61,865 nucleotides of DNA from Chiloscyllium plagiosum (Eukaryota), in NCBI RefSeq assembly GCF_004010195.1, contig NC_057753.1, positions 2,191,243-2,253,107 of the forward strand, in the 5' to 3' direction. Below are positions 25,100 through 54,370 of this stretch, piece by piece. Under the pieces are notes generated by a model that was not told the DNA's origin, did not search any database, and was given only the letters and a program-made list of their open reading frames with translations. The position numbers were made by a program, and so were the translations under genes. Positions within the stretch are counted from its first letter, which is position 1. The number at the start of each line of letters is the position of its first letter.

Positions 25100-25500
25100 C
25101 CTCACAATGGGGCCACGCTGATTGATGGCACCTCCTAGCCAATAGCGGTGAGCGGCCTCTGGTCCTCCGACCAATCAGAGTGAACAGCGAGTGGGGCGGG
25201 CTCAGCGCGCCGTTCCGCCAGACCGCGCAGGCGCACGGCCTCGGGGACCGGAGCGAGCGGGAAACGTTAACGGCGGAAGAGGAGAAACAGCGGAGAGCAG
25301 GTAAACGGGAAGTTTCATATCTACCCGGTACACAGGCTGGCAGACCCGAACGAAGAGCCAGAAGACTCTGAGTCCCTCGTTGGCAGCAAACGGGCGAGTG
25401 GCAGCGGAGCCAGGCCGCAACCGGCCCGGGCTGCCGCCGCCATCTTTCCTGGAAGCGAGATGCTGCAGGGCGCATGCGTAGTCCCCCTTCCACCAGGCTG
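25100..25500 (+). promoter_or_regulatory. CpG-island promoter 1 with putative non-coding first exon (donor 25300|25301)
   Basis: CpG-dense. TGATTGATGGCA at 25119, CCAAT at 25139 and 25171, GC box at 25193, NRF1-like GCGCAGGCGCA and GCGCATGCG, YY1-like GCCGCCATCTT at about 25435, and a CAG|GTAAAC donor. Confidence 0.75.
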
Positions 25501-25621
25501 TAGGAAAGGGGTTGGACTTGCACCTTGTCAACTCAATCCAAGAGGAAAGTTGGTCTCTTCTGAATTTCTTCTGTGCGCTGAAAGTGATGCATTTTATTTT
25601 ATTTCTGATCTCCTTTTGCAG

Positions 25622-25780
25622 GATTTAAAATCAGAGCAATCAAACATCCCGTCAGGATCCGACTGAGCCTTTGGAGTCATCTGGGATCTGGATATCTTTG
25701 GTATTTGACTTGGGGAGGAACAAGGTTGGTGTGTTCTACCTGTGAGCCTCAGAAATGGCTTAAGTTGAAAAGCAGCAAGA
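25622..25780 (+). pseudogene. Truncated ZNF-type exon relic (leader module plus a degenerate CxxC), followed by a CR1 fragment
   Basis: Acceptor TTTTGCAG at 25621. It translates NQTSRQDPTEPLESSG, like the leaders of both ZNF exons, then LVCSTC. No finger array follows. Confidence 0.45.
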
Positions 25781-26019
25781 AGTTAAAATTCCTGCCTTCG
25801 GCCACTCCTGCTCGATTCTGTGCCCTACACCTGAGGAAAGGGGGAAAAGAAGAAATTATGTTGGCCTTTGAAGAAACCTAGAAGAGATTTACCAAACTGC
25901 CATCTTGATTCCAGTGGTTAATTTATCAGAATTAAACAAATATGCCGGAAGGGCCATTCAGTCCATTGAATCTGACCTGCCTCTCTGGATAACAATCCAG
26001 TCTGTTTCTTTCAAGATTA

Positions 26020-26230
26020 GAGTGGTGCTAGAAAAGCACAGCAGGTCAGGCAGTATCCGAGGAGCAGAAAAATCGACGTTTCGGGCAGGAGCCCTTCATG
26101 ATTCCTGATGAATGGCTCCTGCCTGAAATGTCAATTTTCCTGCTCCTCCGATGCTGCCTGACTTGCTGTGCTTTTTCCAGCACCACAGCTCGACCTGAAT
26201 CTCCAGCAGCTGCAGTCCTCACTTTTGCCT
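26020..26230. mobile_element. Penelope-like terminal hairpin (inverted repeat)
   Basis: Arms at about 26022-26099 and 26105-26185 are reverse complements; CTGATGA...GAAA on the right arm. Confidence 0.8.
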
Positions 26231-26299
26231 TATAAAGTTATATAGTCACACCGCATGTTACAGTTCTTTAACAAGGGTAACTAATTAATTCGGCCTCTA

Positions 26300-26745
26300 A
26301 GTGGCTAGCAATGCTGCCTCACAGCAGCAGGGACCCAGGTTCAATTCCACCCTTGGGTGACTGCCTGTGTGGAGTTTGCACATTCTCCACATGTCTGCGT
26401 GGGTTTCCTCTGGGCACTCCAGTTTCCTCCCACAGTCCAAAGATATACAGGTCAGGGTGGACTGGCCATGCTAAATTGCCATCGAGAGTGTTGTGCTGGA
26501 AAAGCACAGCAGGTCAGGCAACATCCGAGGAGCAGGAGAATCAATGTTTCAGGCAAGAGCCCTTCATCGGGTATTGCTAAATTGCCCACACTGTCCAGGG
26601 ATGTGCAGGCTGGGTGGATTAGTCATGGGAATTATAAGGTTACAGGGAGAGACTGGAGGGGGGAAATGGTCTGCTTTTCAGAGGGTCATTGTGGACTCAA
26701 TGGGCCAAAAGGTCTGTTTCCACACTGTAGGGGTACTATGATTCT
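26300..26745 (+). mobile_element. V-SINE interrupted by a 94-bp PLE terminal module (26481-26574)
   Basis: The duplication TGCTAAATTGCC at 26469-26480 and 26575-26586 flanks the insert. Confidence 0.82.
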
Positions 26746-26799
26746 AATTGGAGGCAGCTTCTCTTTCACGCAACCCTGGGAGATCAAGCGCTGTCTGTC

Positions 26800-27255
26800 T
26801 TGCAGCTGCAGTTTCCAAGCCCTGCTATCTGCATGCCTCGGATGGATGGAAGAAAACAAGACCAGAAGAACAAAGGAAGAAAAGGTCAGAGGAACAGAAG
26901 GAAAGAAGAGGATGTGGATCAATGAAGAATGATGGTTCGAAGAAGCGATGGGCAACCAAAAAGGCCCAGTTCTGTGAAACGCAATTACTCCACACAACAG
27001 ACAGCAATCAGCCCGACAAATGATGGGGGGGGTCTGCTACTTATTCTCTTCCCTCTCTCATTAGAGGACTTGAAAAACGAATTCACCGCAAAACTGTCCA
27101 TCACAAAGCCTATCTCGAAATATTCAAGGAACGTTCTGGAAAAGTGGGTGACAGGGAGTTGGTGCGACCCATCAAGGAGGAAGAGGTTAAGACCAGCTTC
27201 AAAGAGATCGATCGCAAGAGTGCAGCCGGGCCAGAGAGGACGAATTTAATTGAAT
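26800..27255 (+). mobile_element. Decayed R2-like (RLE-class) non-LTR retrotransposon fragment
   Basis: Frameshifted KKAQFCETQLLHTTD ... LEDLKNEFTAKLS ... DRELVRPIKEEEVKTSFKEIDRKSAAGPE, resembling R2 RT motifs -1 and 0. Confidence 0.5.
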
Positions 27256-27569
27256 TAACTTTGTTGTCACATTTACCCACGGCAGTAAAGTGAAAAGTTT
27301 ACAAGTGGCCTCTTACGGCGCCATCTTGGGTACCAAGGTATCTCAGTACAGATACTTAAGTACAAATGCTTCAGGAAAAAAAGAAATTTAAAAAAAAAAT
27401 TAAACAGTCCAGCAATAATTTAGAAAAATAGAGAAATATGGGTTCGGAATAAGTCTTTCCAAACTAGACTGCTCTGGGCTTCACTTTGAGGGCAGGAGTC
27501 GGAGTCCACACTGAGGTTGGGAATCCACACTGGCTTTCACCCTGGACATAGCAAAACATTGTTGTTAGG

Positions 27570-27745
27570 TTTGTTCGATTATATGATTTCAGTTTCATCG
27601 CACTGTAATCTTCGGCAATAATTTCTATGCTTTATGATCTTACGCTCCACCACCGCCTGATGAAGGAGCAGCGCTCCGAAAGCTGGTGCTTCCAAATAAA
27701 CCTGTTGGACTAATAACCGGGTGTTGTGTGATTTTTAACTTTGAA
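27570..27745 (+). mobile_element. Penelope-like terminal repeat with hammerhead core
   Basis: CTGATGA-A-GGAGC-AGC-GCTCC-GAAAGCT at 27657-27684; same family as 5610. Confidence 0.7.
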
Positions 27746-28013
27746 TTTGTAATGGGAACAAGAGGAAAGTGTCTCGAACAGAACAGCAGCCTCGTTCATT
27801 TCGTGGGGCATCCATCGAAGGGTAGGAGCCCTTCGCCCAGGACATATGAAGACTCGCAATATGCCCGTCACTGGAACCACTACAAATCTTCTGCAACAGA
27901 TAGCCTGACTCGAGAACCTGAAGTAACTGCGGATGCTGGAAATCAGAAACGAAAACAGAAATTGATGGAGAAGCTGAGCAGGGGCTGGCAGCCTGTGTGG
28001 AGAGAAATCAGGA

Positions 28014-28049
28014 GTTAACTTTTCAGGTCCAGTGACCCTTCCTCAGAAC
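28014..28049 (-). ncRNA. Minimal hammerhead-ribozyme-like motif in a PLE terminus
   Basis: Reverse complement GTT-CTGAGGA-A-GGGTC-ACTG-GACCT-GAAA-AGTT-AAC. Confidence 0.5.
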
Positions 28050-28594
28050 ACTTTACAACTCGCTCAGCTAAGGCTGAGGATGTCTGATGCCATTCTGTAG
28101 GAGACAAGGTGAGGTGCTGACATATGGTAAGAAAATGGTGATGAGAGAAATTTTCTCAACCTTCTAAAATTTTGAAAACCATATAAAGCATATAAAATCA
28201 ATCAAAATGTTTTTGTGTAAAGGCAGTGAATAAGCTACCATTAAGGTATGAGATCATGGGTATTTTATTACAAGAGAGCATAAGTGGTGTTGTTATATAG
28301 TTGCAACAAAGAGCACATCAGTTTTAGTGGATTTCCTTGGACTAACAAACCAGAATGGAACTGCCTGGCTGTACATTTCCTTTGTTTTGAAGAACAGCAT
28401 GATTGGTGAATTGTCCCAGTCCTCGGGTTTCCCCTTAGATGACCCTCTTTCAACCAAGTGGCTGTGGCTTTACTATTTGGAACATTTTAAGAATGTTGAC
28501 TAACAAAATTAAGACTCTTAGAAAGCACCCTATGTGTGTAATTAAATAGCTATATTGTAGGACAGAGAACAAATCAAGATAAAATGAGGGTTTT

Positions 28595-28835
28595 TTAATT
28601 TATTCATGGGAAGAAGGTGTCGCTGGCCATGCCCAGTATTTATTGCCCATCTCTAATTGCCCGGAGGGCAGTTAGGAGCCAACTACATGGTTGTGGGTCT
28701 GGAGTCACATGTAGGCCAGACAAGGTAAGGATGGCAGTTTCCTCCTGTGAAGGACATTAATGAGCCAGATGTTTTGTTTTCCCAACAATCTACAATGGAT
28801 TCACGATCATCATTAAACCCTTAATTCCAGATTTT
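28595..28835 (-). mobile_element. Deu-SINE/SacSINE1-like fragment with LINE-derived tail
   Basis: CTGGAGTCACATGTAGGCCAGAC and TTTATTGCCCATC; a related copy lies at 39085-39230 (+). Confidence 0.55.
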
Positions 28836-28897
28836 ACACCCTTAATTGTGTAATTGTTAAGGCATGTAAAAAGATGGGTGATTCATCATGAGATTAA

Positions 28898-29209
28898 TCA
28901 TGGAATCCCGACAGTGTGGAAGCAGGCCATTCAGCCCATCAAGTGTACACTGACCTTCTGAAGAGCAACCCACCCATACCCTATAACCCTGCAGTCCCCC
29001 AGTCTGGCAATATAAGCAACATCACATGGTCAATCCACCTAACCTGCACATTTTGAGTTGTGGGAAGACATCAGAACACCTGAAGAAACCCTCACCGATA
29101 CAGGGAGAATGTGCAAACTCCAAACAGACAGGTGCCCAAGGATTGGAATTGAACCAGCATCCGTGGTGCTGTTAGGCAGCAGTGCTAACCACTGAACCAT
29201 TGTGCCACC
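28898..29209 (-). mobile_element. HE1-like V-SINE
   Basis: Similar to the other copies. Confidence 0.8.
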
Positions 29210-29711
29210 AGTTATGAATGACAAAGGGTAGATGTGGACAGGTTGATTCCCTTGTGGGTGAGAGGGCATTATTGCAGCGTATCCAAATTAGGACAGAGAT
29301 GAGGAGGAATCTCTTCTCTCAGAGAATTGTGAATCTATAAACATGTTTATTGCAGAGGGGTTGGAAGCTGGGTCATTGAGAATATTGAAGGCTGCGATTG
29401 ACTGATTTAATCAGAAAGGGAATCAGATGTTTTGACAAAATAAACCAGGAACGTGGAGTTGAGGATTATCAGATCATGGCTGATCTCATTGAATAGTGGA
29501 AGACAGTTCAAAACAGAATGTCCTACTTAACTAGTGATTTGTCTCTGAACAGTCTCCAATGCCAAAATATCTTTCCTTAGACAACGGGGCAAGAACTATT
29601 CATGGTATTCAAGCTGTGGTATAATTTGTGCTTTGTTACTGTTATCTAGGCTTTCCTATTTTATACTTCATTCTAATTCTCTGGGGTTTTTCCTGAGTCT
29701 AAGACAATTCT

Positions 29712-30230
29712 GGTCTCCTTCCTATCAGAAAAATGTTGTGAAACTTGAAAAGGTTCAGAAAAGATTTACAAGGATATTGTCATCGTAGGAGGATTTGAGC
29801 TATAGGGAGAGGCTGAACAGGCTGGGGCTGTTTACCCTGGAGCATTGGAGGCTGAGGGGGTGACCTTATAGAGATTTACAAAATTGAGGGGAATTGATAG
29901 GATAAATAGGCAAAGTCTTCTCCCTGGGGTTGGGGAGTCCAGAACTAGAGGGCATATGTTTAGTGTGAGGGGGAAAGAGACCTAAGGGGCAACTTTTTCA
30001 CGCAGAGGGTGGTAGGTGTATGGGATGAGCTGCCAGAGGAAGTGGTGGAGGCTGGTACAATTGCAGCATTTCAAAGGCATCTGGATGGGCATATGAATAG
30101 GAAAGGGTTTAGGGGGATATTGGCCAAGTGCTGGCTAATGGTACTAGATTAGTTTAGGATATCTGATCAGCACGGACAAGTTGGATGAAGGGTTTGTTTC
30201 CGTGCTGTCCATCTCTATGACTCTATGATC
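29712..30230 (+). mobile_element. CR1 3' end
   Basis: KLEKVQKRFTR...FFTQRVVGVWDELP, and a tail ending CTCTATGACTCTATGA. Confidence 0.85.
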
Positions 30231-30269
30231 CTTGGAAGATTATTACTGGTGCATCCGCGATCTCTAGAT

Positions 30270-30915
30270 AATGCCATTTCCTTTGTCTTCTCTATTTTCT
30301 GCTAAATCTGTGTTAACTTGCTGTGATTCATGCAGAACCACCCCTAAATCCCTCTGAACTTCAGCTTTCTGTATTCCTTTCCCGCTTAAATAATATTTAG
30401 CCCCTCTATTCTCCCAAAGCGTGTAAACTCACATTTTTGTATATTCCATCTGCATAGTTGTTACAAACTTATTTAACCTGTCTACTGTATACTTTTACAG
30501 ACTCTCTGTCAACCTTAGCACTTGCTTTCCCACCTATTTTTGTGTCATCCACAAAAGTGGTTGCAGAACATACATTTTCTTCACCAAAATTATGAATATA
30601 CTGTAAATAACTGTGGCCCTGACGCTGAACTGTAAGGCACACCATGAATTATAAGTTGCCATCTTGTAAATGCCATCCTTCTCCCATATCTCTATCTTCT
30701 ATTGATCAATTAATTCACTGACCATGCTAATATGCTCCATCCAACTGCCATGTATCCTTTTTAACAGAATCACCTGATATTTGGCCCTTATCAAACACCT
30801 TTCCTAAATCCAAATATATTATGCTTATTATCATTCGCTATTATGCTTAGTACCTCCTCAAAGAATTCTAATAAATTCATAAATTCAAGAAGTCACGCTG
30901 GCTCTGTGTGATTGT
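30270..30915 (-). mobile_element. Old CR1 RT fragment
   Basis: Degenerate DDTKIGG and VPxxSxxGP segments on the minus strand. Confidence 0.55.
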
Positions 30916-31093
30916 ATTTCAGATGAGGGGATAAGAGGAGTTCATCCCCGTGTGAAATAGTGATTGGCTGAATGTGATTAAAAGTCCTACCACACTCAAA
31001 GAGCTACTGTCAATTTCATAATGAGTTCAATGATTCCGATAGACTTTGATGTTGCTGTTCCCGACTGTAACTCCTGTACTTCCTAACCCTATT

Positions 31094-31825
31094 GGGGTGA
31101 CGCAGTGAGTCAGTGGTTAGCAGTATTGCCTCTCAGTGCCAGAGACATCGGTTCAATTCGAGCTTCAGACTGTCTGTGTGGATGTCTGCACATGCCCCAT
31201 GTGTATGTGTTTTTGCCTGCCTGCTCTGGATTCCTCCCACACTCCAAAAATGTGTAGGTTCGGGTGGATTGGGCACGCTAAATTACCCAAAGTGTCCTGG
31301 GATGTGTAAACACGGTGGATTAGCCTTGGGAAATGCAGGTTTACAGGGTTGGTGGGGGGGAGTGAGTTAGAACATAGAACAGTACAGCCTGCTTCGGCCC
31401 TTGATGTTCAGCTGATCTTTTACCGTACTCTAAGATCCAAACTATCCAATATACCCTTTGTTTTACTATGCTCCATGTTCCTACTAAAGAGTTGCTTAAA
31501 TGTCACTAATGTACCTGACTCTACTACTACCAATGGCAGTGCATTCCACACACCCACCACTCTCTGTGTAAAGAACCAGCCCTTGACATCACCACCAAAC
31601 CTACCTCCAATCACCTTAAAATTATGCCACCCCCATGATAGACATTTCCGCCCTAGCTGTTCACTCTAGCTATGCCTCTCATCATTTTGTACACCTCTAG
31701 CAAATCGCCTGTCACCCTCCTTTGCACCAATGAGAAAAGCCTTATCTCTCTAGTTGGGTGGGATGATCATCGGTGTGGACTTGTGGGCCAAATGGACTCT
31801 TTCCACACTGTCGAGGTCCTATGAT
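31094..31825 (+). mobile_element. V-SINE split by a minus-strand CR1 3' end (about 31369-31752)
   Basis: SINE body to about 31365, then CR1 FFTQRVVGVWNALP on the minus strand; the SINE tail resumes at about 31755. Confidence 0.75.
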
Positions 31826-31879
31826 ATTGTGTCAAAATTTGGCCACATCCATCCCTGTCGGTCCAGCATTGGCTGGATC

Positions 31880-32420
31880 TGTATTTGTGGAATATTTTTG
31901 CCCAAAAATGCATAACCCACCGTCATTCCACGCAAGATTCTGTAAATCCACTTTAGAAATAGAACCAGTATGACTCAAAATTGGGTTGCAGACTTTAACC
32001 TCACACCTTTAATGCATTGTTTGAGCTGAGATGACACCTTTTGTTAGAAATCCAGAAGGTATTTGAGAGTGACTTAAAAGGAGTTCTGTGACTTAGATAA
32101 TCATGAACCGAAGCTGGCACACGTATTCCAAAAGATGAAAGACTTCATCTAATTTTGTTTAATATATTTCAGCTGTAACCTTTTGCTATAAATTCTGTGC
32201 CTTATGGTCCTGCTCCACAACCATCTCATGAAGGGACAGTGCTCCGAAAGCTACTGCTCCAAATGAACCTTTTTTTCAGATTAGATTCCCTACAGTGTGT
32301 GATTTTTAACTTTGTCCACCCCAGTTCGACACCAGCACCTCCAAAGCATTCTAAAAGATGAAAGACTTAAGCTAAATTTGTTTAATATTGCTTTCCATGA
32401 CACTGCAAAACTTGACCACG
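31880..32420 (+). mobile_element. Penelope-like 3' fragment with mutated hammerhead core
   Basis: CTCATGAAGGGACAGTGCTCCGAAAGCTA at about 32225; matches 5500-5690. Confidence 0.6.
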
Positions 32421-32439
32421 TCCATCCCTGACTTTCCAG

Positions 32440-32910
32440 CAGCATTGAGCCAACTCACAGAGGAGAGCCTTGGCTGATTGACGGCACATTGTAGCCTATA
32501 GAGGGTGAAGGGGCGGGGAACGTCCTCCCGCCAATCGCAGTGAATGGGAGGCGGGGCTTGGTTCATAACACGTGAACTAAAGTGTCGTCACGTGATCTCC
32601 CCGCCATCACCGTGCGTCCGCGCAAGCGCCCTGCCGCTGCGCCTGAGGTCCGGGTTGAGCGCTGGAGGAGTGTTAATGTTGAAGGGTCGGGAAGGAAAGA
32701 AACGGCGAGAGTGCAGACCGAGAGGCTTCGCCAACACTCGGTGTAGGCCCCCGACCCGGACTGGAAGCTCCCGGTCCCTGGTTTGCAGGTGAAGGGAAAA
32801 CAGCTGCGGGCCCCGAAGAGGCGACAGGTCCCGGGGTTGCCGTCGCCATATTTGTCGGGGGCAATGTTGTACTGATTATGATGGGTGGCGCCATCTTTAA
32901 AGGGGGCAAG
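32440..32910 (+). promoter_or_regulatory. CpG-island promoter 2 with putative first exon (donor 32788|32789); candidate promoter of ZNF 46015-46887
   Basis: TGATTGACGGCA at 32475, CCAAT at 32531, GC boxes, CACGTG at 32569, GTCACGTGAT at 32587, a CAG|GTGAAG donor, and YY1-like GCCAT(A/C)TTT at 32845 and 32890. Confidence 0.75.
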
Positions 32911-33059
32911 TTGCAGCAGGGTGTATTTTGACTGGTAGGTGGAAGAGGAATGTTTACACACAGCAAACTCAAGCCAAGAGAAATGTATGTTTTTTTTGTA
33001 CAATTTCTACCCTGGACTGGCAATGATGGGATTTTTTTTTTGTAAACACCTTTTTACAG

Positions 33060-33171
33060 GATATTGGAATGAGGAGGATTTGCACATAGGAAAGTCGAAT
33101 CAAAAACTACATCAAGATCTGACAGTGTGGCTCGTCTTCTATCAGGAAGAGAAAAGGCCTTAAAAATTCAG
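33060..33171 (+). other. Putative 5'UTR exon 2 carrying the ZNF leader module
   Basis: TTTTTACAG acceptor and CAG|GTATGG donor. It translates EEDLHIGKSNQKLHQDLT, homologous to the leader at 55003-55111. Confidence 0.55.
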
Positions 33172-33429
33172 GTATGGGTGTAAGTGAACAAGTGCCAAGA
33201 TCTTCCATATCCTAGTTGGACCACACCAGGAGTTCTGGTGGTACTCCTGAGGAAGAATAGTCTGTATTGGCTTGAGAGGAAGCACAGAGCAGGTTTACCA
33301 GAGTGATGCCTTGACTCCCGGGGTTAGATTATGAGATATGGCTGCAAATGTGAGCCATAGTTATTAAATAGCTAAAATATTACCTCAGATTACAACAGAA
33401 TCTTGATCAGATGGGCCAATGGGCTGAGA

Positions 33430-35545
33430 AGTAGCTTGCTCTCTGTTGTCTTTGACCACTTCCGTGTGCTTGTTTTCGGGTAACAGCGCAGCTTCCTGAA
33501 CGGTAATAGCTGGCGGTTTGCCAGCTTCCAGTAACTGAACTGCACTGTTTTGGGGGAGTGTATTTGGATGGCTCGAATGTTGTCCTCTGGGTGACTGGAT
33601 CCATTTTACCTGAGTAGTGTCCCACTTTGTCTCTATGACATTACCTCTAGATTGATTGCCGTTGCTTTCACTGTGAAAGAGGTGAAAGGGCCTTTTCAGT
33701 GCTGATGCGGAGGCCAGTGTCTGTTTGATGTTGACACCTCCTGCTCAGCTCCCCAGTCGATCTTCTCTGAGCTAGCCTGTCACCCTTTGGTAAGGTCATG
33801 CAGGAGTCCAGCTAGCTCGCTATAATTCTTTACACAGCTACTGCAATAATTAAATAGTCCGAAGCTTTGTCTTGCGCCTTTAACAGTAACTTTTCATTTC
33901 TGGTGGAATGCTATGGTTGCCCCGTATTACTGTCCGTTGCTATGGCAACTGGCTGGAGCTTACTGTGCGCCTGTTGAAATCCTTGTCCTTGCATACCTTG
34001 ATGTAGGAACCAAATGTTTTCTGAGTTCTTATTGGGACAGTTCTTGGTGAAATGCCCATCGCTAATGCACACAAAACACACTCCCCTTTTTTTTCCTGTG
34101 ACCCACCGGCTCCCTTTACCAACTACTGCTGGTTTCTTAAGATTTCTATTTCCTGCATCATCGCCCAATTGAATACTTCCTTAATTTGTGTATGTGTTTT
34201 TTCATCCTCCAGTTCTCTCTCCACAATTACTTTTCCCAGTAGCATTGAAATAGCATCAAATGTAGACCCAAAATTTCTAAAGAAAATATCCATCCATTCC
34301 ACGCTACGCAGAATGGGTTAGTTAATATTGATTTACTAAAGATTCCAAAGGAGGTGGGTGTAAACTCTTAATTACATCATCCATCACTCCTCCTCCTGCA
34401 AGAACATAAATGTTACACTTTAACAGAAAAAAGAACACCACCTGTGTTAAATTTGCCTTTTCCAATTCCTCCATGAGGTTCCTCAGATTTTAGACCATAC
34501 CATCGGAATTGTGTTCAGAGAATTAAGTTTCCAAGATACCAAATTTCCTATTATTGGCATTCTTTCACATCAAAGTACCTTTCCAATGAGCAAATCTCAT
34601 GTGTTAAAGTTCATTCTGGCCAGAAAACGAAATTCCAAACACGGTAATTTCTGAAACTAAACTTTACCCAAGTGCAAACACAACACAGAGCCAATTCTAA
34701 AAGATTTTTTTACCAAGCTTTCCCGAATAGACTTTTAAAATCAACATTTCGTTGCTGACTTCTGCTTTGCACAATCACTGATAGTTTCTTGACCAGACAT
34801 TACGTTAACCATACATGTCCCAGACTTAAACAGGTAGAATATACTTTTAAATCACCCATTTGCATATTGGGAACATATGAACTTCAAAGCATTCGCCATA
34901 TCTCTAGCTCCAGGGAATAAAAAACACACAAATTGCACAGGATAACATTTAGGAACCAACAAACCAAGGTGCATTCAAACCAGACCACAAAGAGTTAACC
35001 CTTCTACAAAGTTCAGTGAACTAGCAGAGAATCGGGGTTGCTCTTTCTCTCTCTCGCTCTCACACTTCTGAATGCTGCAGCTTGTTTCTGTGTTTTTTTA
35101 AAACGCTTAGTCAGCAGAATGGACTAGTCTGAACACCACGCCGCTTGCCCACAGTCCTTCCCTGCCATTTTCCCATACTCTCGTTCTTTTAACGTCCCAC
35201 TTCTCTCACGCCAAGAGACTTCTTGCTCCCACCCACTTTTCTCCTCCTTTTCGCGCCTCTTAGCACCAGGACCCACAACCTCTTTTGTTATTTTCATTCC
35301 TCCTATTCACAACCCCTTTCACTATTCCTGTGACCGGACCCCCCCTTTCTTGCTCCAATTTAAGTTTGTTTTGTGCTGTGGCTTATAGAAACCCCCGCCA
35401 CCAAATGTCACATGAACTAAAAGGGTGGTAAATAAACATACTCCCCCAAATCGTGGCCCAAGGTGTGCTGGCTTCAGGCAGATCACCCTGCTCGCAGCAC
35501 CAATCTATTGGAGCGTACCTCCCGACCAGGACAAAGACTGAGGAT
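33430..35545 (-). mobile_element. Decayed LTR retroelement 5' portion (LTR end, PBS, gag zinc knuckle, protease relic)
   Basis: On the minus strand, ...TGTGACA (35412-35406) is followed by PBS-like TGGTGGCGGGGG. CFVCISDGHFTKNC (CX2CX4HX4C) at about 34040-34085; DTG motif at about 33715. Confidence 0.7.
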
Positions 35546-39274: not shown

Positions 39275-39862
39275 AATGTAAGTTTGCTTAATGAGCTGGA
39301 AGGTTCATTTTCAGAACTAGGTAATATCATCAGTGAGCCTTTGGTGATGCGCTGGTGTTAGTGACCCGCTCTCTCTTTGTGTGTTTAGTTTTCCTTTGGT
39401 TACTGACATCATTTCCTGTGGTGATGTCATTTCCTCCTCTTTTTCTCAGTGTGGTAAATAAGCTCTATCAACAAACACATTGATGTGGACCCCATTTACC
39501 ACCCTCTGAGGAAAAAGAACAGGAAATTGCATCACCAGAGGCAATGGCATCACCAACCCAAGGAAACCTAAACACTCAAATCAAAAGCAGGACATAACAC
39601 CAGCGCTTCACCGGTGGCTCACTGATGATGTTACCTAGTATGGTGACAAAATGCCTGAAAACAAGCCTTCCAGCTCAGTGAGCAAACTTGCATCCAGAAA
39701 CCTAAACACTCAAATCAAAAGCAGGACATAACACCAGCGCTTCACGGGTGGCTCACTGATGATGTTACGTAGTATGGTGACAAAATGCCTGAAAACAAGC
39801 CTTCCAGCTCAGTGAGCAAACTTGCATCCAGAACCTCAACCTGAGGTAGAAATCTTCTCACT
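39275..39862. mobile_element. Penelope-like terminus with one inverted copy plus a 134-bp tandem duplication
   Basis: 39563-39696 is repeated at about 39697-39833, each copy with CTGATGA-TGTTAC..GGTGAC. 39285-39460 is an inverted copy. Confidence 0.75.
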
Positions 39863-45197: not shown

Positions 45198-45247
45198 TGT
45201 GTCCTACTCTGGCTCAGTGGGAGAGTGTTCAGAATGGTCAACATTTG

Positions 45248-45553
45248 GATTAGATTCCCTTCAGTGTGGAAACGGGCCCTTCGGCCCAACAAGTCCACAC
45301 CGACCCTCTGAAGAGTAATCCACCCAGACTCATTTCTCTATGTTTACTTCTGACTAATGTACCTCACACAATGGGCAATTTAGCAAGGCCAAGCCACCTA
45401 ACCTGCACATCTTTGGACTGTGGGAGGAAACCGGAGCACCCAGAGGAAACCCACGCAGACACTGGGAGAATGTGCAAACTCCACACAGACAGTCACCCCG
45501 AGGCTGGAATCGAACCCGGGTCCCTGGCGCTGTGAGGCAGCAGTGCTAACCAG
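45248..45553 (-). mobile_element. HE1-like V-SINE
   Basis: Similar to the other copies. Confidence 0.88.
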
Positions 45554-46014
45554 TGGGTCACCGTACAGCCTGCTCTCTGCTTTTCCACTCAGTGCCTCTC
45601 TTTACCAGGCTGAAATATCTTTGTGTCGCAAACTCAATGCGGCCTTTCCACTGTCTGAGATCTATGCACATTAACAACAAGCGTGAGGTCTCTGCTGGAT
45701 CCCTGACATCCAGCAATGACAGCAGTTACCAAGATCAGCTACCCTGTTCCTTCTGTGTTGTGTGGATAGAAGGTTTAGGAGAGCCTGTCTGAGTAGCTGC
45801 ATAAAATCCTTCTTCTCCACCTTCTGTTATCCTCTCTCCCTCTCCCAACCCCCCCTCAGTCTTGCTAAACTGACTTCCTGTGTTTTTTTTTGGGAGGGGT
45901 TCTTTTTCATTCTGTTTTCTTTTCCCTGTTTTCTATTGGCAAAGGAGCATTTGCCGTCCGGAGACCCGAGCCAAACGTCCCGTCGGGATCTGATTTGCCG
46001 AATGTCTTGGGATC

Positions 46015-46887
46015 ATGAACACAGAGGTAACCAGCACTGCTCAAGGCGCAGAGAAACCGTACACGTGTTCCGTATGTGGACGAGCCTTCAGCCGGTCGTC
46101 TGGCCTCTCGAAACATAAATGCAGTCGCGATGGGGAGAAACGATGGAAATGTGGGGACTGCGAAGAGGGGTTCAGGTATCCCTCCCAGCTGGAAACGCAT
46201 CGACGGACTCACACAGGGGAGAGGCCGTTCATGTGTTCCATCTGCGATAAGGGATTTGCTCGGTCCTCTGACCTGCTGAAGCACCAGCGGGTTCACACCG
46301 ACGAAAGACCTTTCAATTGCCTGGACTGCAGCAAGTGCTTTAAATGCTCCGGTGACCTGATACGCCACCAACGCGTTCACTCCGAAGAGAGACCGTTCCG
46401 GTGTTCTCGCTGCGGCTCTGGCTTCAGGCGGTCCTCTCACCTCACCGTGCACCAGCGTGTGCACACCGGGGAAACGTTTGCGTGCTCTGAGTGCGGGAGA
46501 GCGTTCACTCGGCCGTCCAACCTGCTGAAGCACCAGCAGTTTCACACGAGGGAGAAGCGGTTCACCTGCCCGGAGTGCGGGAAGGGTTTCCCCGAGTTAT
46601 CGATCCTGCTCCGACACCAGCACGCTCACGTGGGAGAGAAGCTGTTCACCTGCTCGGTGTGTGGGAAGGGATTTAGACGGTCGTCCAATCTGTTGACGCA
46701 CCAGCGGGTTCACACTGGTGAGAAGCCATTCACCTGCCCGGAGTGTGGCAAAGGGTTTACTGAGTTAGCCACCCTTCAGTCGCACCACCGCGTTCACACT
46801 GGGGAGAGGCCATTCATCTGCTTTGAATGTGGCAAGGGATACACTCGGTCATCGCACCTGCTGAGACACCAGCAAGTTCACAAATAA
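46015..46887 (+). CDS. Tandem C2H2 zinc-finger protein (290 aa; 1 degenerate + 9 canonical fingers; no KRAB/SCAN/BTB visible)
   Basis: Uninterrupted ORF with CxxC-x12-HxxxH repeats and TGERPF/TGEKPF linkers. It is preceded by a polypyrimidine tract and an AG acceptor at 45943-45944. Confidence 0.93.
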
Positions 46888-47097
46888 TGGCAGAGATTGG
46901 ATTTTGCTGTTAATTGCGTCCAAAACGGAATTGAATCGATGAAACAGCCACATCGTAGAAATGATCAAAACAAAATTGCACGCCCCTTTTCCCGTGAGGG
47001 AGAGGGGCTTGGGTCTCGCACTAGAGATTCAAACTTGTTCTAACAAGGGGGTGGCCAACAGAAATGGAAATCAAGTTAAGATAGGTTAAGGTCAGAG

Positions 47098-47319
47098 TGG
47101 ATTAGTGGTGCTGGAAGAGCACAGCAGTTCAGGCAGCATCTGAGGAGCAGTAAAATCGACGTTTCGGGCAAAAGCCCTTGGTCAGGAATACATTCCTGGT
47201 CAAGGGCTTTTGCCCGCAACGTCGATTTTACTGCTCTGATGCTGCCTGAACTGCTGTGCTCTTCCAGCACCACTAATCCAGAATCTGGTTTCCAGCATCT
47301 GCAGTCATTTGTTTTTACC
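47098..47319. mobile_element. Near-perfect PLE terminal hairpin with a 14-bp flanking duplication
   Basis: Arms 47098-47189 and 47192-47280; TAAGGTCAGAGTGG at 47087 and 47320. Confidence 0.85.
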
Positions 47320-48072
47320 TAAGGTCAGAGTGGTGCTGGAAAAGCACAGCAGGTCATCCGAGGAGCAGCAAAATTGACTTTTCGGGCAAAAGCCCTTCAT
47401 TAGGAATGAGGCTGGGAGCCTCCGGGGTGGAGAGATAAATGGGAGGGGGGGAATGGGGCTGGAGGGAAGGTAGCTGAGTGTGCAATAGGTGGATGGAGTT
47501 GTGGGGTTAAAGATGATAGGTTGGAGAGGAGGGTGGAGCGGATCGATGGGAAGGAAGATTGACAGGTAGGACAGGTCATGAGGGCGGTGCTGAGTTGGAA
47601 GGTTGGAACTGTGGTAAGGTGGGCGGTAGGGGAAATGAGGAAACTGGTGCCACATTGATGCTCTGGGGTTGGAGGGTCCCGAGGCGGAAGATGAGATGTT
47701 ATTCCTCAAGGTGTTGGGTGGTGAGGGAGCGGTGGTGGAGGAGGTCCAGGACCTGCATGTCCTCGGCAGAGTGGGAGGGGGAGTTGAAATGTTTGGCCAC
47801 GGGGCGGAGGGATTGTTTGGTGCGGGTGTCCCGGAGATGTTGTCTGAAGGGGGCGTGGACCTGACCAAGTACCTAACAGCCCACCATACCTTCCCGGAAA
47901 CTTCCCCTGCCACTGCAGGAATTGCAAAACCTGTGCCCATACCCCCCCCCCCCACCGCTGTCCAAGGCCCCAAAAGTGCCTTCCACATCCATCAAGGTTT
48001 CACCTGCACTTCCAAACGTCATTTACTGTATCCATTGCTCCCAATGGGGTCTCCTCTACATTGGGGAGACTG
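47320..48072. mobile_element. Penelope-like fragments in both orientations (GIY-YIG region)
   Basis: Minus-strand 3' end to about 47850. Plus-strand FHIHQGFTCTS..IYCIHCSQWGLLYIGET. Confidence 0.8.
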
Positions 48073-48077
48073 GACTT

Positions 48078-48635
48078 GCTTAGGCCACTTTTGTAATATT
48101 CTGTGCAATTCTGGTCTCCTTCCTATTGGAAAGGTGTTGTCAAACTTGAAAGGGTTCAGAAAAGATTAACAAGGATGTTGCCAGGGTTGGAGGATCTGAG
48201 CTATAGGGAGAGGCTGAACAGGCTGGGGCTGTTTGCCCTGGAGCGTCGGAGGCTGAGGGGCGACCTGATAGAGGTTGACAAAATTGAGGGGCATGGATAG
48301 GATAAATAGACAAAATCTTTTCCCTGGGGTCATGGAGTCCAGAACTAGAGGGCATAAGTTTAGGGTGAGAGGGGAAAGATATAAAGGAGACCTAAGGGGC
48401 ACCTTTTTCACGCAGAGGATGGCACGAGTATGGAATGAGCCGCCAGAGGAAGTGGTGGAGGCTGGTACAATTGCAATGTTTAAGAGGCATTTGGATGGGT
48501 ATATGAATAGGAAGGGTTTGGAGAGATATGGGCTGGGTGCTGGCAGGTGGGACTAAATTGGGTTGGGATATTTGTTGGCATGGACGGGTTGGACCGAAGG
48601 GTCTGTTTCCATGCTGTACATCTCTATGACTCTAC
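48078..48635 (+). mobile_element. CR1 3' end
   Basis: QFWSPSY..KLERVQKRLTRMLPG; tail ending CTCTATGACTCTA. Confidence 0.9.
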
Positions 48636-48754
48636 GGATGCCTACTCGCAGAGCGCTTCAGAGTGAGGAAAACGATGGTTGATCCACTGCTAAGTCAACC
48701 CGAAGAATTAAATAATGGATAACGAGGAAATGTTGAATCTGTCTTTGTTGGGTG

Positions 48755-48970
48755 TTGGCTAGCTGAGTTGGCTGGATGGCTGGTCTGCAATTCGGAGCGA
48801 TGCCAACAAATGGGTTCAATTCCTGCCCCAGCTGTGGTTCCTATGAAGGATTTTCTGTCTCAATTTCTCCCCTCACGTGTGAAATGGTGAACCTCAGGTT
48901 AAACCACTGCCAGTCGTCTCGCGCTAATGAGAGAGCAGCCTTGTGGTCCAGTAAAACTACAGTGACTTGA
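48755..48970 (+). mobile_element. Second tRNA-derived SINE family (not V-SINE)
   Basis: TGGCTAGCTGAGTTGG A-box-like and GGGTTCAATTCC B-box, followed by a distinct body. Confidence 0.5.
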
Positions 48971-48987
48971 GCTTAACATTCAAATGC

Positions 48988-49266
48988 GATGGCTCAGTGG
49001 TTAGCACTGCTGTCTCACAGCACCAGGTTCGAATCCAGCCTCTGGCGACTGGCTGTTTGGAGTTTGCGCATTCTCCCCGCATCTGCATGGGTTTCCTCCC
49101 ACAATCCAAAGTGCAGGTCAGGTGAATTGACCGTGCTAAATTGACGATAGTGTCAGGTGCATTAGTCAGAGGGAAATGGGTCTGCGTGGGTTACTCTTTG
49201 GAGGGTCGGTGTGGACTGGTTGGGCTGAAGGGCCCGTTTCCACACTGTAGGGAATCTAATCTAATC
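48988..49266 (+). mobile_element. HE1-like V-SINE
   Basis: Head, V-domain and tail. Confidence 0.82.
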
Positions 49267-49399
49267 AAACCAATGAGATGGTGCAGTTTGAATCAACATT
49301 AATATGGAAACCAAATTAGTTTGAGAGCAAGAAGCCGAGAATAGGGATAACTGGATGGCTTTTGGGTGAGTGGGCTTAAATAGTGTAGGATTTATCCTT

Positions 49400-50170
49400 C
49401 ATTCCTGCTCTTTCTCATCTCCATGCTACATGAGGTGACATTGTCCAAAGGCACTGTTATTTTTCCCATGTACACTGGCAATGCCTAGTTCTACCTCCCC
49501 ACCATCCTTCTCTCCATTCCTCTAACTGTTAGTAAATTATCTAACCTCCTAATGCCGAATCCAGTGCAGGTCTTGAGCAGACATTTACTCCATTGACAAA
49601 TTGGGATGATCAAACCAGTTGTTTATTTGCCACAGCATATTCAGTTCCATGTCTACCCCTCCCTCTGGGATCTGACTGAGGCTGAACCACACAGCTCACA
49701 ATCTCTGTGGCATGTATGACTCGAGATGTATTTCTGACCATATGTTCACAGTCACTGACCGCAGCTATTTTAATCTTGGCAATGTCCCCTATTTCCTGCA
49801 CCATCCCATCTGCTGCTTAGAGCCTCATACGTGCCTGTGTTAACTTTAGACTAGACAATTCCAATGCATTCCTAACTAGCTTCAGGTTCACACAGCCAGA
49901 AACATACAATCATCCAAAACTCTAGTTGTCCATGTGCTAATCCTGTCCACCCATTTGGCCACAGTGAGGCCAAAGAAGTCTGAAATTGTAAAATGTGCAC
50001 CCTTGTTTTCAAATTCCACTGAGGCCTTGCTTATCTCTGTGATCTCCACTTGTATAACCCTCTGAGATATCAGCCCTTTTGAGTCTCCTTATTTCACGCT
50101 GTCATTGGTGGCTGTGCCTGAATGTAAAACTCTGATATTCGATTCCTGAGCCCCTTCACCTCTGTCCCGG
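49400..50170 (+). mobile_element. Old L2-clade LINE 3' fragment
   Basis: Degenerate YADDTQLYL-like and LIRACVNFRLDNSNAFL (LIHAFVTSRLDYCN-like) segments. Confidence 0.65.
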
Positions 50171-50849
50171 ACAAAGCAGTCTTTACGGTGAAGTGTCTCT
50201 CCTAGCAATGCCCGCTCAGACTCCAGTCACGTGCTGCTTCATGAAATGTCTCTGCAAGGCCTTGCAGCCTTTGATCGCATTTGGCGTGTTGCATAAAGAA
50301 AAACTGTTACTGTTTGACAACATCGGTTTGTTGGCAGCAACATACCACAAACGGGCGATCAGATGGGTGGCTGGTGCATCAGTTCCTTTGGTGGCGTTGG
50401 TTAAAGCATGATTGTTGGTCAAAGCATGATTGTTGGTCAGTCTGCACCAGAAGAACTCCCCTGTGGACAGTGTTTGTCGCTGTTGTGGTCTTCTGAACTG
50501 TCGGATCTGCAGTTACCTTTGAAGAAGTGGAGTCTGGGATTATTTCCTCTTTTGTCGGCCAAGGAGGAACAGGGTACTCGTTTGAACGGTTGTTGAATAC
50601 TGGAGCAGGCTGGAAGGGCTAAATGGCAAACTCCTGACCCCTCTTGTTTTTTTTTTAAACACTTGTGTTTCACTGATTCCTATTTGAAGTGGTTTCTGCA
50701 CTAAATGGTTTTCAATGAATATCGATCTCAATGTAGTAACTGGAGAAAAAGTTGCAAAATTAAATGAATTCTGAAAGAGAGAGTTTTTTGGTGCTCATTT
50801 TGTACCTATCTCACCTTCATAATATCACAAAATGATTCTTTTCAAAAAA

Positions 50850-51727
50850 TTGTTCACTCGTGGGGGTCACTGGCTCACCAGTGTTTTATTCCTCATTCCT
50901 AATTGCTTGTGAGAAAATGGTGATGAGCTGCCTCTTGAACCCCTGCACTCCACATGCTGTCAGGTTTTTAAAAGATTAGATTAGATTCCCTACACTATGG
51001 AAACAAGCCATTTGGTCGAACCCAAGCAGACCCATTTCCCCCCTACCCTATATTTCCCTCAGCCGAATGCATCTAACACTTACGGACAATTTAGCATGCC
51101 CAGTTCACCTAACCTGCATGTCTTTGGATTGTGGGAGGAAACCGGAACACCCAAAGGAAACCCACAGAGACATGGGAAGAATGTGCGAACTCCACACAGA
51201 CAGTCTCCCTGAGGCTGGAATTGAACCCTGGTCCTATGAGGCAGCAGCGCTAACCACTGAGCCACCGTGCTGTCACGGTGACCCACTACATCCTGAGAAA
51301 GGGAATTTCAGGATTTTAACTCATGAATAGCAAGTCAGGATGGTAATAGCCTTGGTGAGGAACTTGAAGGTGCGGGTGGACCTATGCATCTACTTCTCAG
51401 TAGAGGTTATGAGGTGTGAAATCTTTGGTGAATTTTTGCAGTGCATCCTGCTGCTACTGCACATTGGTGATGAAGAGAATGGGTGCTTGTGGGATTGGTG
51501 CCAGTCAAGTGTGATGCTTTGGCCTGAATGGTGTCAAGCTTCTTGGCTGTTGTTCGAGCTACACCCATCTAGGCAAATGGGGAATATTCATCACACTCCT
51601 GACTTGTGCCTTGCAGGTTGTGGATAGGCTCTGGGGAGATGGGCTATTCATCACATAATTCCTAATCTCTGACCTGCTCTTGTAGCTACTGTGCTTATTT
51701 GGCAAGTCCAGTGAGTTTCTGGTCAAA
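50850..51727 (-). mobile_element. L2/CR1-group LINE 3' end interrupted by a V-SINE (50974-51272, -)
   Basis: Minus-strand KAQVRSVMxYSPFA..KKLDTIQ-like segment. Confidence 0.65.
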
Positions 51728-51729
51728 AC

Positions 51730-52292
51730 GTGTGGCGCTGGAAAAGCACATCAGGTCAAGCAGCATCTGAGAAGCAGGAAAATCGACATTTCAGGCATAA
51801 NNNNNNNNNNNNNNNNNNNGGGGGGGGGAGGGGAGATGAGGAAACTGGTGAAATCTACTTTGATGCTGGGAAGAGACAGTGCATTATCCTCTGCTATTTC
51901 CACCACCTACAATCTGACCCCACCACCAGAGATACATTTCTCTCCCCAACCCTATCAGTATTTCGCAGAGATCATTCCCTCCTCGACTCCCTTGATAGGT
52001 CCACGCCTCCCCATGAACCCACCCTCCACTCCTGGCATCTTCACTTGCCACTGCAAGAGGTGTAAAACCTGTGCCTACACCCCCCTCACCTTCATCCGAG
52101 GCCCTAAAGGATCTTTCCATGTCTGGCAGAGATTTTTCCGCACATCCAAACACCTCATCTACCATGTCTGTTGTTCTCACTGTGGTCTCTTCTGCATTGG
52201 AGAGACAGGACACCAACTTGCAGAACGTTTCAAGGAACATCTCTGTAGGACACACACCAAATAACCTCCCCCTCCCAATCCTGTAGCTGAGA
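51730..52292 (+). mobile_element. Penelope-like GIY-YIG fragment
   Basis: PGIFTCHCKRCKTC..LIYHVCCSHCGLFCIGETGHQLAERFKEHL. Confidence 0.8.
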
Positions 52293-52579
52293 TGACTGAA
52301 CTTCAACAAACACAAACATCTTCCTGTATGCCAGGTATGACTCAAACCAGTTTGCCGCGGATACCTATTGATTTCAGTTTTGCTCCTTGATGCCATACTT
52401 AAGGATTCACAGATAATATTAAAGTTTCAAAAGAAAAAAATGTGAAGAGGCAAATTAAACTAAATGGAACAGTTGAGAACAGTGACTTAAGAATGTATGG
52501 TCACAATCTTTGAAAGTGATAGAACAAGTTAGTCAAGCTGCTTGAAAAAAAATTAAATGCACAGGGTCCTCCAATTTAT

Positions 52580-53066
52580 TAATTGTGTGCAATTCTGATC
52601 TCCCTCCTACAGGAAGGATGTTGTGAAACTTGAAAGGGTTCAGAAAAGATTGACAACGGTGTTGTCAGGGTTGGAGGATTTGAGCTATAGGGAAAAGCTG
52701 AACAGGTTGGGACTGTTTTCCCTGGAGCATAAGAGGATGAGGGGTGACCTTATAGAGTTTTATAAAATCAAAAGTGGCATGGAAAGGCTAAATAGACAAG
52801 TCCTTTTTCCTGGGGTGCGGGAATCCAGAACCAAAGGACATAGGTTTACGGTGAAAGGGGAAAGATTTAAAAGGGGCAACCTTTTCACACAGACGGTGGT
52901 GCATGTATGGAATGAGCTGCTAGGGGAGGTGGCGGAGGTTGGAAAAATTCCAATATTTAAAAGGCATCTGAATGGGTATATGAATAGGATGGATTTGGAG
53001 GGACTAAATTAATATAGGATGTCTGGTTGGCATGGACGTGTTGAACCAAAGGATTTGTTTCCATGC
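52580..53066 (+). mobile_element. CR1 3' end
   Basis: ORF 52623-53012 KLERVQKRLT...WNELL. Confidence 0.88.
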
Positions 53067-53122
53067 CTCTTAAGACATAATTAATCTTGACAAATCACTG
53101 ACTGATTCTCAGCTGAAACATT

Positions 53123-53475
53123 GGGCGGCACGGTGGTACAGTGGTTAGCACTGCTGCCTCACAGCGCCTGAGACCCGGGTTCACTTCCCGCCTCAGGCGA
53201 CAGCGCCTGAGACCCGGGTTCACTTCCCGCCTCAGGCGAGTGACTGTGTGGAGTTTGCACGTTCTCCCCGTGTCTGCGTGGGTTTCCTCCGGGTGCTCCG
53301 GTTTCCTCCCACAGTCCAAAGATGTGCAGGGTCAGGTGAATTGGCCATGCTAAATTGCCGTAGTGTTAGGTAACGGGTAAATGTAGGGGTATGGGTGGGT
53401 TTCGCTTCGGCGAGTCGGTGTGGACTTGTTGGGCCGAAGGGCCTGTTTCCACACTGTAATGTAATCTAATCTAAT
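53123..53475 (+). mobile_element. Young V-SINE with an internal 39-bp tandem duplication
   Basis: 53161-53199 is identical to 53200-53238. Confidence 0.92.
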
Positions 53476-53774
53476 TGTGCACAACTCTTGCGGCCCAGTG
53501 TTTTGGAGTGATATTTGGGCCTTGTATGGACAACTTCCCAGAACATCACCAGAGACAAGGGCTTTCAGTTTTAGTGGAGAGACTGCGATTCCTCTGCTCA
53601 GACAGGGAAGGTGGAGAAAAGTAGGTTCAAATATTTGCAGGAGCATTACCCCACCCGGGGAGAAATGGATTGGATTGTCACGATAATTGTTGCACGCACA
53701 AGCTAGCTTTAAGAGAATGGGGTGAAGGTGAGGAGAACCATTGTGCATTGCCCAGTTTCCATGATCAGCAATAC

Positions 53775-54370
53775 AATAACTTCCCAATAGGGCAGTCTCT
53801 CAGCCAATAAGGAAGCTTTCGGATTCAGTCCCGCCCTTCATTCACTCCCATTGGATCGAAGACCAACTGCTGAATTTGGCCCTCCAGCATGGTGCCCACT
53901 TCCTATTGGTCAGGCCTTGCCGTCAATCAGCCGGTACTGCCCCGTAGGCGTGGGCATGCGCGGTGCCGGTGTGTCGCTCCGTTCGGCAATGCGCATGCGC
54001 GGTTGCCATTTCTCCGCAGGCTGAGGGTCGTCGGTGTCGTTTTTTATGGATCGCAAAAGGTGAGAGTCAGGGTGAGAAGGTGGAGCGGTAGACAGGCAGC
54101 GGGTGGGCGGAGAGGATTAGGCAAGCGCCTTGGGTCAGCCGCAAACTCTGAAAAGAGCCCACCTCACCCCGCCTCCCTCCTTCCTTTGCACCAAACGGAA
54201 AAAAGGCGCCAGACTTCCTCCCGGTGGAGACAGCAGCCATCTTTGTTAGGGGCAGTGCGCAGCGGAGGAATGTCGCGTGTGTGCCGTCATTGTTAGGGGC
54301 CATCTTTGTTGGGGGCAAGGTTTGGAATGACTGGGCGGAGCTTGCTGCCCATTGTCCCAAATGGAGGCAT
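53775..54370 (+). promoter_or_regulatory. CpG-island promoter 3 with first exon (donor 54059|54060) of ZNF 55112-55987
   Basis: Four CCAAT/ATTGG boxes, GC box at 53829, TGCGCATGCGC (NRF1-type) at 53990-54000, an AAG|GTGAGA donor, and three YY1-like motifs at 54236-54317. Acceptor at 55002. Confidence 0.8.

Follow-up and report, generated by a model that had tools for sequence, protein, structure and literature searches.

A predicted DECA-CCAAT promoter module shared by three probable zinc-finger gene 5' ends of the shark Chiloscyllium plagiosum and inverted in one of them

The window (the whole stretch of 61,865 nucleotides analysed here) contains three units, P1, P2 and P3, each with a module of closely set promoter motifs, and two exons coding for C2H2 zinc-finger (ZNF) proteins, Z46 and Z55. 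Their features are as follows.

25118..25200, plus: P1 module; DECA-like decamer 25119-25128, with GAT for GAC; CCAAT 25139; GTCCTC 25162; CCAAT 25171; AGTGAA 25179; GC box 25193-25200
25201..25700, plus: P1 predicted exon 1 and intron; NRF1-like site 25225; donor GT 25301; YY1-like site 25439; acceptor
25622-25700, plus: P1 non-coding exon-2 block, by homology, with no ZNF coding sequence behind it
32474..32558, plus: P2 module; DECA 32475-32484; CCTAT 32495; extra GTGAA and GC box 32505-32517; GTCCTC 32522; CCAAT 32531; AGTGAA 32539; GC box to 32558
32559..33171, plus: P2 downstream region; E-boxes 32569 and 32589, NRF1-like site 32620, YY1-like sites 32845 and 32890, all predicted
33060-33171, plus: P2 non-coding exon-2 block; predicted acceptor before it, possible donor 33172, no ZNF coding sequence behind it
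45945..46887, plus: Z46 ZNF exon with exon-2 block; predicted acceptor 45943-44
53784..53808, plus: two further CCAAT boxes (53784, 53804), left of the inverted P3 module
53827..53932, minus: P3 module, inverted; DECA 53929-53920; CCAAT 53909-53905; GTCTTC 53863-53858; CCAAT 53854-53850; AGTGAA 53846-53841; GC box 53836-53830
53933..55002, plus: P3 predicted exon 1 (NRF1-like sites 53954 and 53991; donor GT 54060) and, in part by homology, predicted intron (YY1-like sites 54236 and 54299; acceptor AG 55001-02)
55003..55987, plus: Z55 ZNF exon with exon-2 block; ORF 55112-55987

The P1 splice sites and the factor names (NRF1-like, YY1-like) are predicted from the respective consensus sequences.

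The word TGATTGAYGGCA occurs exactly at 25119 (+) in P1, 32475 (+) in P2 and 53929-53918 (-) in P3, and nowhere else in the 61.9-kb window at up to one mismatch. The first CCAAT box, CC(A/T)AT, with the variant CCTAT in P2, starts 20 nt past the first base (T) of the decamer in all three copies. The second CCAAT lies at +52 (P1), +56 (P2) and +75 (P3), and in 3/3 copies GTGAA stands 9 nt past its first C, followed by a GC box; the conserved word is better given as AGTGAA at +8, and GTCYTC at -9 to -4 of the second CCAAT is also common to all copies. These motifs and the 20- and 9-nt distances are thus as described in the initial annotation, and three copies of the exact 12-mer, of the TALE+20 pattern or of the full pattern were reached in none of 60 local Markov shuffles. 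Because the patterns were drawn from these same three copies, the shuffles speak for non-randomness, not for independence, and in the 1-mismatch search of TGATTGAYGGCA three matches were also reached in 5 of 100 whole-window shuffles. The further statement that only the spacer between the two CCAAT boxes varies has to be corrected, since the gap between AGTGAA and the GC box differs among the copies as well. Alignment anchored on CCAAT (17, 16 and 11 of 38 positions identical) is suggestive of an internal duplication of the CCAAT unit.

The module had also been assigned to "all three CpG islands". The islands of P1, P2 and P3 do qualify as such (GC >0.55 and CpG o/e >0.6), with CpG o/e of 0.90, 0.88 and 0.79 and GC of 0.65, 0.60 and 0.59, respectively, but nine stretches of the window qualify by these thresholds and only three of them hold a module. 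The CpG-richest stretch, 46051-46850 (58 CpG), lacks a module and belongs to a ZNF coding exon.

The Z46 ORF (46015-46887) encodes 290 amino acids with nine canonical C2H2 fingers and one lacking the last His, and no module exists anywhere between P2 and this exon. The Z55 ORF encodes 291 amino acids with 10 C2H2 fingers, is 59% identical to Z46, and contains neither a KRAB nor any other domain. A protein search returned generic ZNFs; the top identities among the 120 matches listed were to cartilaginous fish (66% and 59%), and no orthologue was identified among those 120. Comparison of Z55 with metagenome contigs gave 36 loci, none close (best segments 28-49% identical), and the DECA-12-CCAAT pattern was found in 0/36 of them; the composite pattern had no match in the viral contigs or in the metagenome contigs. 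Of eight non-ZNF frames compared with Pfam, seven gave no match and one a weak match to reverse transcriptase, and there was no Rfam match in 47000-61865. Behind P1 and P2 no decayed ZNF coding sequence was detected (best tblastn E 0.32); since neither has a ZNF coding exon behind its second exon, the designation of all three as ZNF promoters is presumptive. A 103-bp satellite that ends beside P1 was considered as a relative of the module and rejected (z at most 1.3).

The intron-1 region and the exon-2 block are paralogous, on the same strand, in the P1, P2 and P3 units, and because these are shared in addition to the module, it was whole gene 5' ends that were duplicated. Profiles built from P1 and P2 define the orientation of each part of P3. 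The leave-one-out module profile matches P3 on the minus strand (E 9.5e-6), while the intron profile matches 54178-54295 on the plus strand (E 0.0025) and the exon-2 profiles match the starts of the Z55 and Z46 exons, also on the plus strand (E 1.4e-8 and 6e-4). Pairwise comparison of the P3 module with those of P1 and P2 gave z of 6.4 and 5.9 on the opposite strand and 0.2 and 0.0 on the same strand. The P1-P3 intron comparison reached a z of only 2.8, and the NRF1-like block of P3 is ambiguous in orientation (against P1, z 3.9 opposite and 2.6 same). Since the module matches on minus only while the intron and the ZNF exon match on plus, strand-specific homology shows that the P3 module is a real local inversion relative to its own gene, as had been proposed. 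No inversion breakpoints were found at P3.

Identity among the three copies is concentrated in the motifs: 34/37 motif columns show the same base in every copy, compared with 2/35 in the adjoining spacers, the motif blocks having been picked after the alignment was seen and two flank rows outside the 2/35 count scoring 3/20 and 6/20. The DECA block is identical at 12/13 positions against a three-way background of 79/235 (0.34; P about 2e-5), and the best downstream window of 13 columns reaches 9/13. The flanks are 50-56% identical pairwise. The fixed distances are another matter. A 12-nt spacer would stay free of indels by descent alone with a chance of about 60%, and for the 20-nt and 9-nt spacings descent alone suffices (P about 0.4-0.9). 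By this reckoning the spacings need no selection, and shared ancestry explains both distances.

The explanation that we favour, and consider probable, is that paralogous ZNF 5' ends inherited a DECA-CCAAT module under selection on its motif letters and that this module was flipped in P3. By homology, the three units would be the 5' ends of a shark-type, KRAB-less C2H2 zinc-finger family, its exons being predicted. The ancestral unit would have comprised the upstream module (a DECA-CCAAT composite, a second CCAAT and a GC box), an NRF1-like site, a short non-coding exon 1, a YY1-like intron and an exon 2 with the ZNF ORF. By analogy, PBX/PREP would bind DECA and NF-Y CCAAT, with Sp2 bridging them across the 12-bp spacer, and the bound factors together may hold the CpG-island promoter open. 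The copies would owe the module to common ancestry, and the conservation of its motif letters suggests that these are under purifying selection. In the P3 lineage the module of roughly 105 bp was inverted in place. In human data NFY, SP and NRF1 motifs are symmetric, whereas YY1 and the U1 site are directional; the P3 gene would still read plus because NF-Y, SP and NRF1 sites work on both strands, its direction presumably being set by the downstream elements and the splice donor. P1 and P2, each with a single core change (GAT in P1, CCTAT in P2), would no longer have a ZNF exon of their own; they may be decaying promoters or else alternative promoters spliced to Z46. Only in P3 are both GAC and CCAAT intact, and only P3 has an adjoining ZNF exon.

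The initial annotation had instead proposed a portable cassette that moves or is copied alone and lands either way round at ZNF starts. The opposite orientation of P3 would suit such mobility, and so would the sequence left of the module, in which the copies show no relationship (z -1.2 to 1.5). However, paralogy extends to the intron-1 region and the exon-2 block, which means that the module arrived as part of a complete gene 5' end; it always stands in the same place, directly before the NRF1-like site; the 61.9 kb contain no free copy (next profile match E 2.5); and no convincing terminal repeats were found, the one 8-nt inverted match lying away from the module edges. We therefore regard a portable cassette as very unlikely. 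An origin of the ancestral promoter from an LTR or other transposon with TALE and NF-Y sites, later duplicated with the gene, would agree with the reported overlap of about 40% of human K562 NF-Y sites with LTRs and with the richness of the window in repeats, but within the window there are only three copies, all at gene 5' ends, and the module is absent from the repeat families listed for it; such an origin seems improbable.

P3 had further been called possibly bidirectional. That the module points minus would be expected of a true head-to-head promoter, in which the ZNF gene uses the back side of a module that serves a minus transcript, either a stable non-coding RNA or that of a lost paralogue. 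Since NF-Y, SP and NRF1 motifs work on both strands, most promoters of this kind should give rise to short divergent RNA, and beyond this generic symmetry nothing at P3 favours the idea. The left flank, 53480-53820, is CpG-poor (GC 0.47, CpG o/e 0.27), and the island lies right of the module (o/e 0.87), on the same side as in P1 and P2; 52900-53830 has no strong donor on minus, and 0/13 YY1-like words lie on that strand. The exon-2 and intron profiles detect no minus-strand exon, intron or ZNF homology left of P3, and no opposite-strand gene or remnant lies within about 1 kb. A head-to-head arrangement is thus unlikely to a marked degree. The least probable reading, which we hardly credit, makes the motifs functionless relics, alike only through kinship of the copies. 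It would draw on the spacings, which need no selection, and on P1 and P2, with their core changes and no adjacent coding exon, but the motif columns are far better conserved than spacers and flanks, the CpG islands have been kept and the Z55 ORF is intact.

On the favoured reading of inherited, selected modules, a bolder extension can be sketched, although we consider it rather doubtful: a shark expansion of KRAB-less ZNF genes wired family-wide to TALE/NF-Y/Sp2, switched on jointly in the early embryo through a flip-tolerant block. The means would be a lineage-fixed 12-bp variant of DECA-CCAAT and a second, undescribed composite, GTCYTC-N3-CCAAT-N3-AGTGAA, read by a further partner; natural inversions would then show that only internal geometry matters. 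If the favoured explanation itself holds, a cartilaginous fish would join mammals and zebrafish as carriers of the DECA-CCAAT element, which would be tied to a zinc-finger family, and there would be a natural 12-bp allele and a naturally inverted allele for probing the proposed Sp2 bridge. Our literature searches yielded no description of the element from a shark or a ZNF cluster.

By match of geometry and half-sites, the module core is the published DECA-CCAAT composite, GAnnGAC-11bp-CCAAT, bound by PBX1/PREP1, NF-Y and Sp2 (Bernardini et al., bioRxiv 10.64898/2026.02.16.706105, which cites Volkel et al. 2018), and binding of these factors to the shark copies is predicted. The earlier reading of the module as a PBX-PREP (DECA) site with NF-Y boxes agrees with this, and the GACGG half-site is found in the mouse Sp2 promoter site as well (10.64898/2026.02.16.706105). 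As in the composite, DECA lies 5' of CCAAT on the same strand, the location is a promoter and there are several CCAAT boxes. The core GAnnGAC is present in two of the three copies (P2 and P3; P1 has GAnnGAT), and the same-strand CCAAT is perfect in P1 and P3. The GAC-to-CCAAT spacer is 12 bp in 3/3, not the canonical 11, so that CCAAT is at +20 from the first base of the decamer, compared with +19 by the paper's numbering; a scan of the window for spacers of 8-14 gave three at 12, one at 10 and none at 11. In the AlphaFold models of the Sp2 bridge (10.64898/2026.02.16.706105) the range is 10-12 bp, with both anchors held at 12 and one lost at 13, and a 12-bp spacer would thus be tolerated. The shark copies also share words beyond the composite (CA after GACGG, GTCYTC and AGTGAA).

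The zebrafish TALE/NF-Y elements at zygotic genome activation (Ladam et al. 2018, PMC6023610; Stanney et al., 10.1101/720102) are similar in that DECA (TGATTGACAG) has CCAAT at about 20 bp; they form a joint motif of roughly 27 bp, enriched at promoters of transcriptional-control genes, and the searched portions of these papers do not mention ZNF clusters. In contrast to that DECA, position 9 of the shark decamer is G for A. Platforms with two CCAAT boxes, GC boxes and E-boxes (Dolfini et al. 2016, PMC4889920; Volkel et al. 2015, PMC4368557) resemble the shark module, with its two CCAAT boxes and nearby GC box and E-boxes: the 36-bp distance in P2 is at the reported peak (35-37) and the 32 bp in P1 within the 30-50 range of Sp2 sites, whereas the 55 bp in P3 is outside the reported peaks. 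The zebrafish FiNZ-ZNF genes (Wells et al. 2023, PMC10547256) are likewise a lineage-expanded tandem C2H2 family with a common promoter type; their classes are set by TATA versus TATA-less starts, and the shark proteins have no N-terminal domain. CCAAT boxes are reported to act largely irrespective of their orientation. Because the composite, the roughly 20-bp geometry and this indifference to orientation have all been described before, and common promoters are to be expected among paralogues, the shark module is a new example of a known promoter element and not a new mechanism.

The sequence TGATTGAYGGCA occurs three times in the 61,865 bases of the window, and the three promoter modules of the initial annotation were found where it had placed them. 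Each comprises a DECA-like (PBX/PREP) site, a CCAAT, GTCYTC, a second CCAAT, AGTGAA and a GC box. The module copies and the window's only two ZNF exons, both on the plus strand, are listed below.

Module copies and ZNF exons in the window
P1, 25118-25200, plus strand: module copy, predicted promoter
P2, 32474-32558, plus strand: module copy, predicted promoter
P3, 53827-53932, minus strand: module copy, predicted promoter
Z46, 46015-46887, plus strand: ZNF exon, 290 aa, C2H2 fingers, no other domain
Z55, 55112-55987, plus strand: ZNF exon, 291 aa, C2H2 fingers, no other domain

CC(A/T)AT starts 20 nt past the T of TGATT and GTGAA lies 9 nt after the second CCAAT, followed by the GC box; both spacings, as claimed previously, were seen in three of three copies, with the second CCAAT at +52, +56 and +75. 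Two common words flanking the second CCAAT had been overlooked, GTCYTC on its 5' side and the A of AGTGAA on its 3' side. Both core words are intact in P3 only; the GAT of P1 is consistent with CpG decay, and P2 carries CCTAT. In P2, positions 32495-32558 can be read as two tandem units, each with a CCAAT-like box, GTGAA and a GC box. This hints at an origin of the module via internal duplication, a pattern that is weak in P3. The exact 12-mer or composite at three copies was obtained in none of 60 local Markov shuffles, and three matches with one mismatch allowed in five of 100 whole-window shuffles; because the patterns were derived from these very copies, the shuffles show non-randomness only. 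Nine stretches are CpG-rich by a simple rule. Three of them contain the module and six lack it, among the latter the richest, which is a ZNF coding exon. The coding exon of Z46 also qualifies as a CpG island (o/e 0.84, 60 CpG), whereas its paralogue Z55 is not (0.49, 27 CpG), which suggests differing germline methylation or history.

In an ungapped comparison anchored on the motifs, 34 of 37 motif columns showed no difference among the three copies, compared with 2 of 35 spacer columns (blocks picked post hoc, and two flank rows scoring 3/20 and 6/20 left out of the spacer count). The DECA block (12/13) exceeds both the three-way background (79/235, P ~2e-5) and the best downstream window (9/13), which points to selection on the motif letters. 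The constant spacings are weaker evidence: for every 100 aligned bases the copies differ by ~2-3 gaps, a rate that global alignment probably undercounts, at which the 12-nt and 3-nt spacers would stay indel-free in all three with probabilities of ~0.6 and ~0.87. The "fixed geometry" stands as an observation, which descent alone can explain.

The module had been proposed to spread as a portable cassette. A block directly 3' of a predicted splice acceptor is, however, common to P1, P2, Z46 and Z55. Profiles made from P1 and P2 alone matched, on the plus strand, the exon starts of Z55 (E 1.4e-8) and Z46 (E 6e-4) and the P3 intron region (E 0.0025), and on the minus strand the P3 module (53932-53827, E 9.5e-6). 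There are therefore four paralogous gene units, all compared inside the window, and the module is part of a larger duplicated unit (module, NRF1-like site, predicted exon 1, intron and exon-2 block), which counts against a cassette moving alone. A transposon origin of the ancestral promoter is possible, if unlikely. Our NRF1-like, YY1-like, E-box and splice-site calls are predictions from consensus words. P3-Z55 is a complete unit. P1 and P2 keep a predicted promoter, exon 1, intron and exon-2 start, and no ZNF coding sequence was found behind either (best tblastn E 0.32); their core changes fit decay of units without coding exons, although both are still CpG islands. Z46, 59% identical to Z55, has no module nearby and may be served by P1 or P2 across a long intron. 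Among the matches listed, the highest-identity proteins are from cartilaginous fish.

Inversion of the module in the third promoter was borne out. The P3 module aligned with P1 and P2 on the opposite strand (z 6.4 and 5.9) and not on the same strand (0.2 and 0.0), whereas its intron (z 5.5 and 2.8) and exon-2 block (z 6.0-9.6) aligned on the same strand; the NRF1-like block is ambiguous, being near-palindromic. In every copy the CpG island sits to the right of its module, and the P3 left flank (CpG o/e 0.27) contains neither a strong minus-strand donor nor any gene remnant. The simplest reading of these alignments is a local inversion of ~105 bp, with the gene still reading plus; breakpoints were not found.

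A satellite array of 102-103 bp (19661-25096; ~19 + 22 copies; higher-order periods 213 and 316), broken at ~21.6-22.8 kb by other sequence, stops ~20 nt short of the P1 module; comparison showed the two to be unrelated. The YY1-like word GCCAT(C/A)TT occurs 13 times on the plus strand of the whole window and never on the minus, five times in the three first introns and three in the satellite. Left of P3, a SINE-like element (53161-53239) includes a 39-bp stretch repeated perfectly in tandem and shows 96% similarity to the copy at 3748-3878, and is therefore young or an assembly slip. Decayed reverse-transcriptase-like frames (58593-59151, minus; Pfam RVT_1, E 0.004, below cut-off) are probably an LTR retroelement relic, and a 134-bp unit is tandemly duplicated at 39563-39840 (97% identity).

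The DECA-CCAAT element itself is already known. GAnnGAC-11bp-CCAAT is bound by PBX1/PREP1 and NF-Y, with Sp2 bridging; its decamer starts at nt 10 and its CCAAT at nt 29, i.e. +19, and models suggest that a 12-bp spacer is tolerated and that 13 breaks the bridge (Bernardini et al., 10.64898/2026.02.16.706105). The Chiloscyllium copies, at +20, have a 12-bp spacer rather than 11; the PREP half-site GACgg is also seen here. Geometry and half-site thus resemble the published composite, in favor of the earlier PBX-PREP and NF-Y reading, and the module would be such a composite with Sp2 bridging over 12 bp. Orientation of CCAAT is largely irrelevant (Fleming et al. PMC3730095), NFY, SP and NRF1 act symmetrically and YY1 and the U1 site directionally (Puffin preprint, 10.1101/2023.06.27.546584), so the flipped upstream block in P3 need not harm the gene. 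Relative to starts, NRF1 lies upstream and YY1 downstream (PMC11269187).

Our searches, with most subscription journals outside them, found no paper describing the element either for sharks or for ZNF clusters. In zebrafish, a joint motif of 27 bp and a spacing of ~20 bp have been described (Ladam et al. PMC6023610; Stanney et al. 10.1101/720102), as has an expanded ZNF family with shared promoter types (PMC10547256); human cells show an 11-bp bias (Ronzio et al. PMC7793273), and double CCAAT platforms, accompanied by GC boxes and E-boxes, have spacings of 24-28 and 35-37 bp (PMC4889920, PMC4368557). The present copies make a modest addition to these systems, namely an example from a shark, a spacer of 12 bp throughout, a second block without an assigned factor, and a natural inversion.
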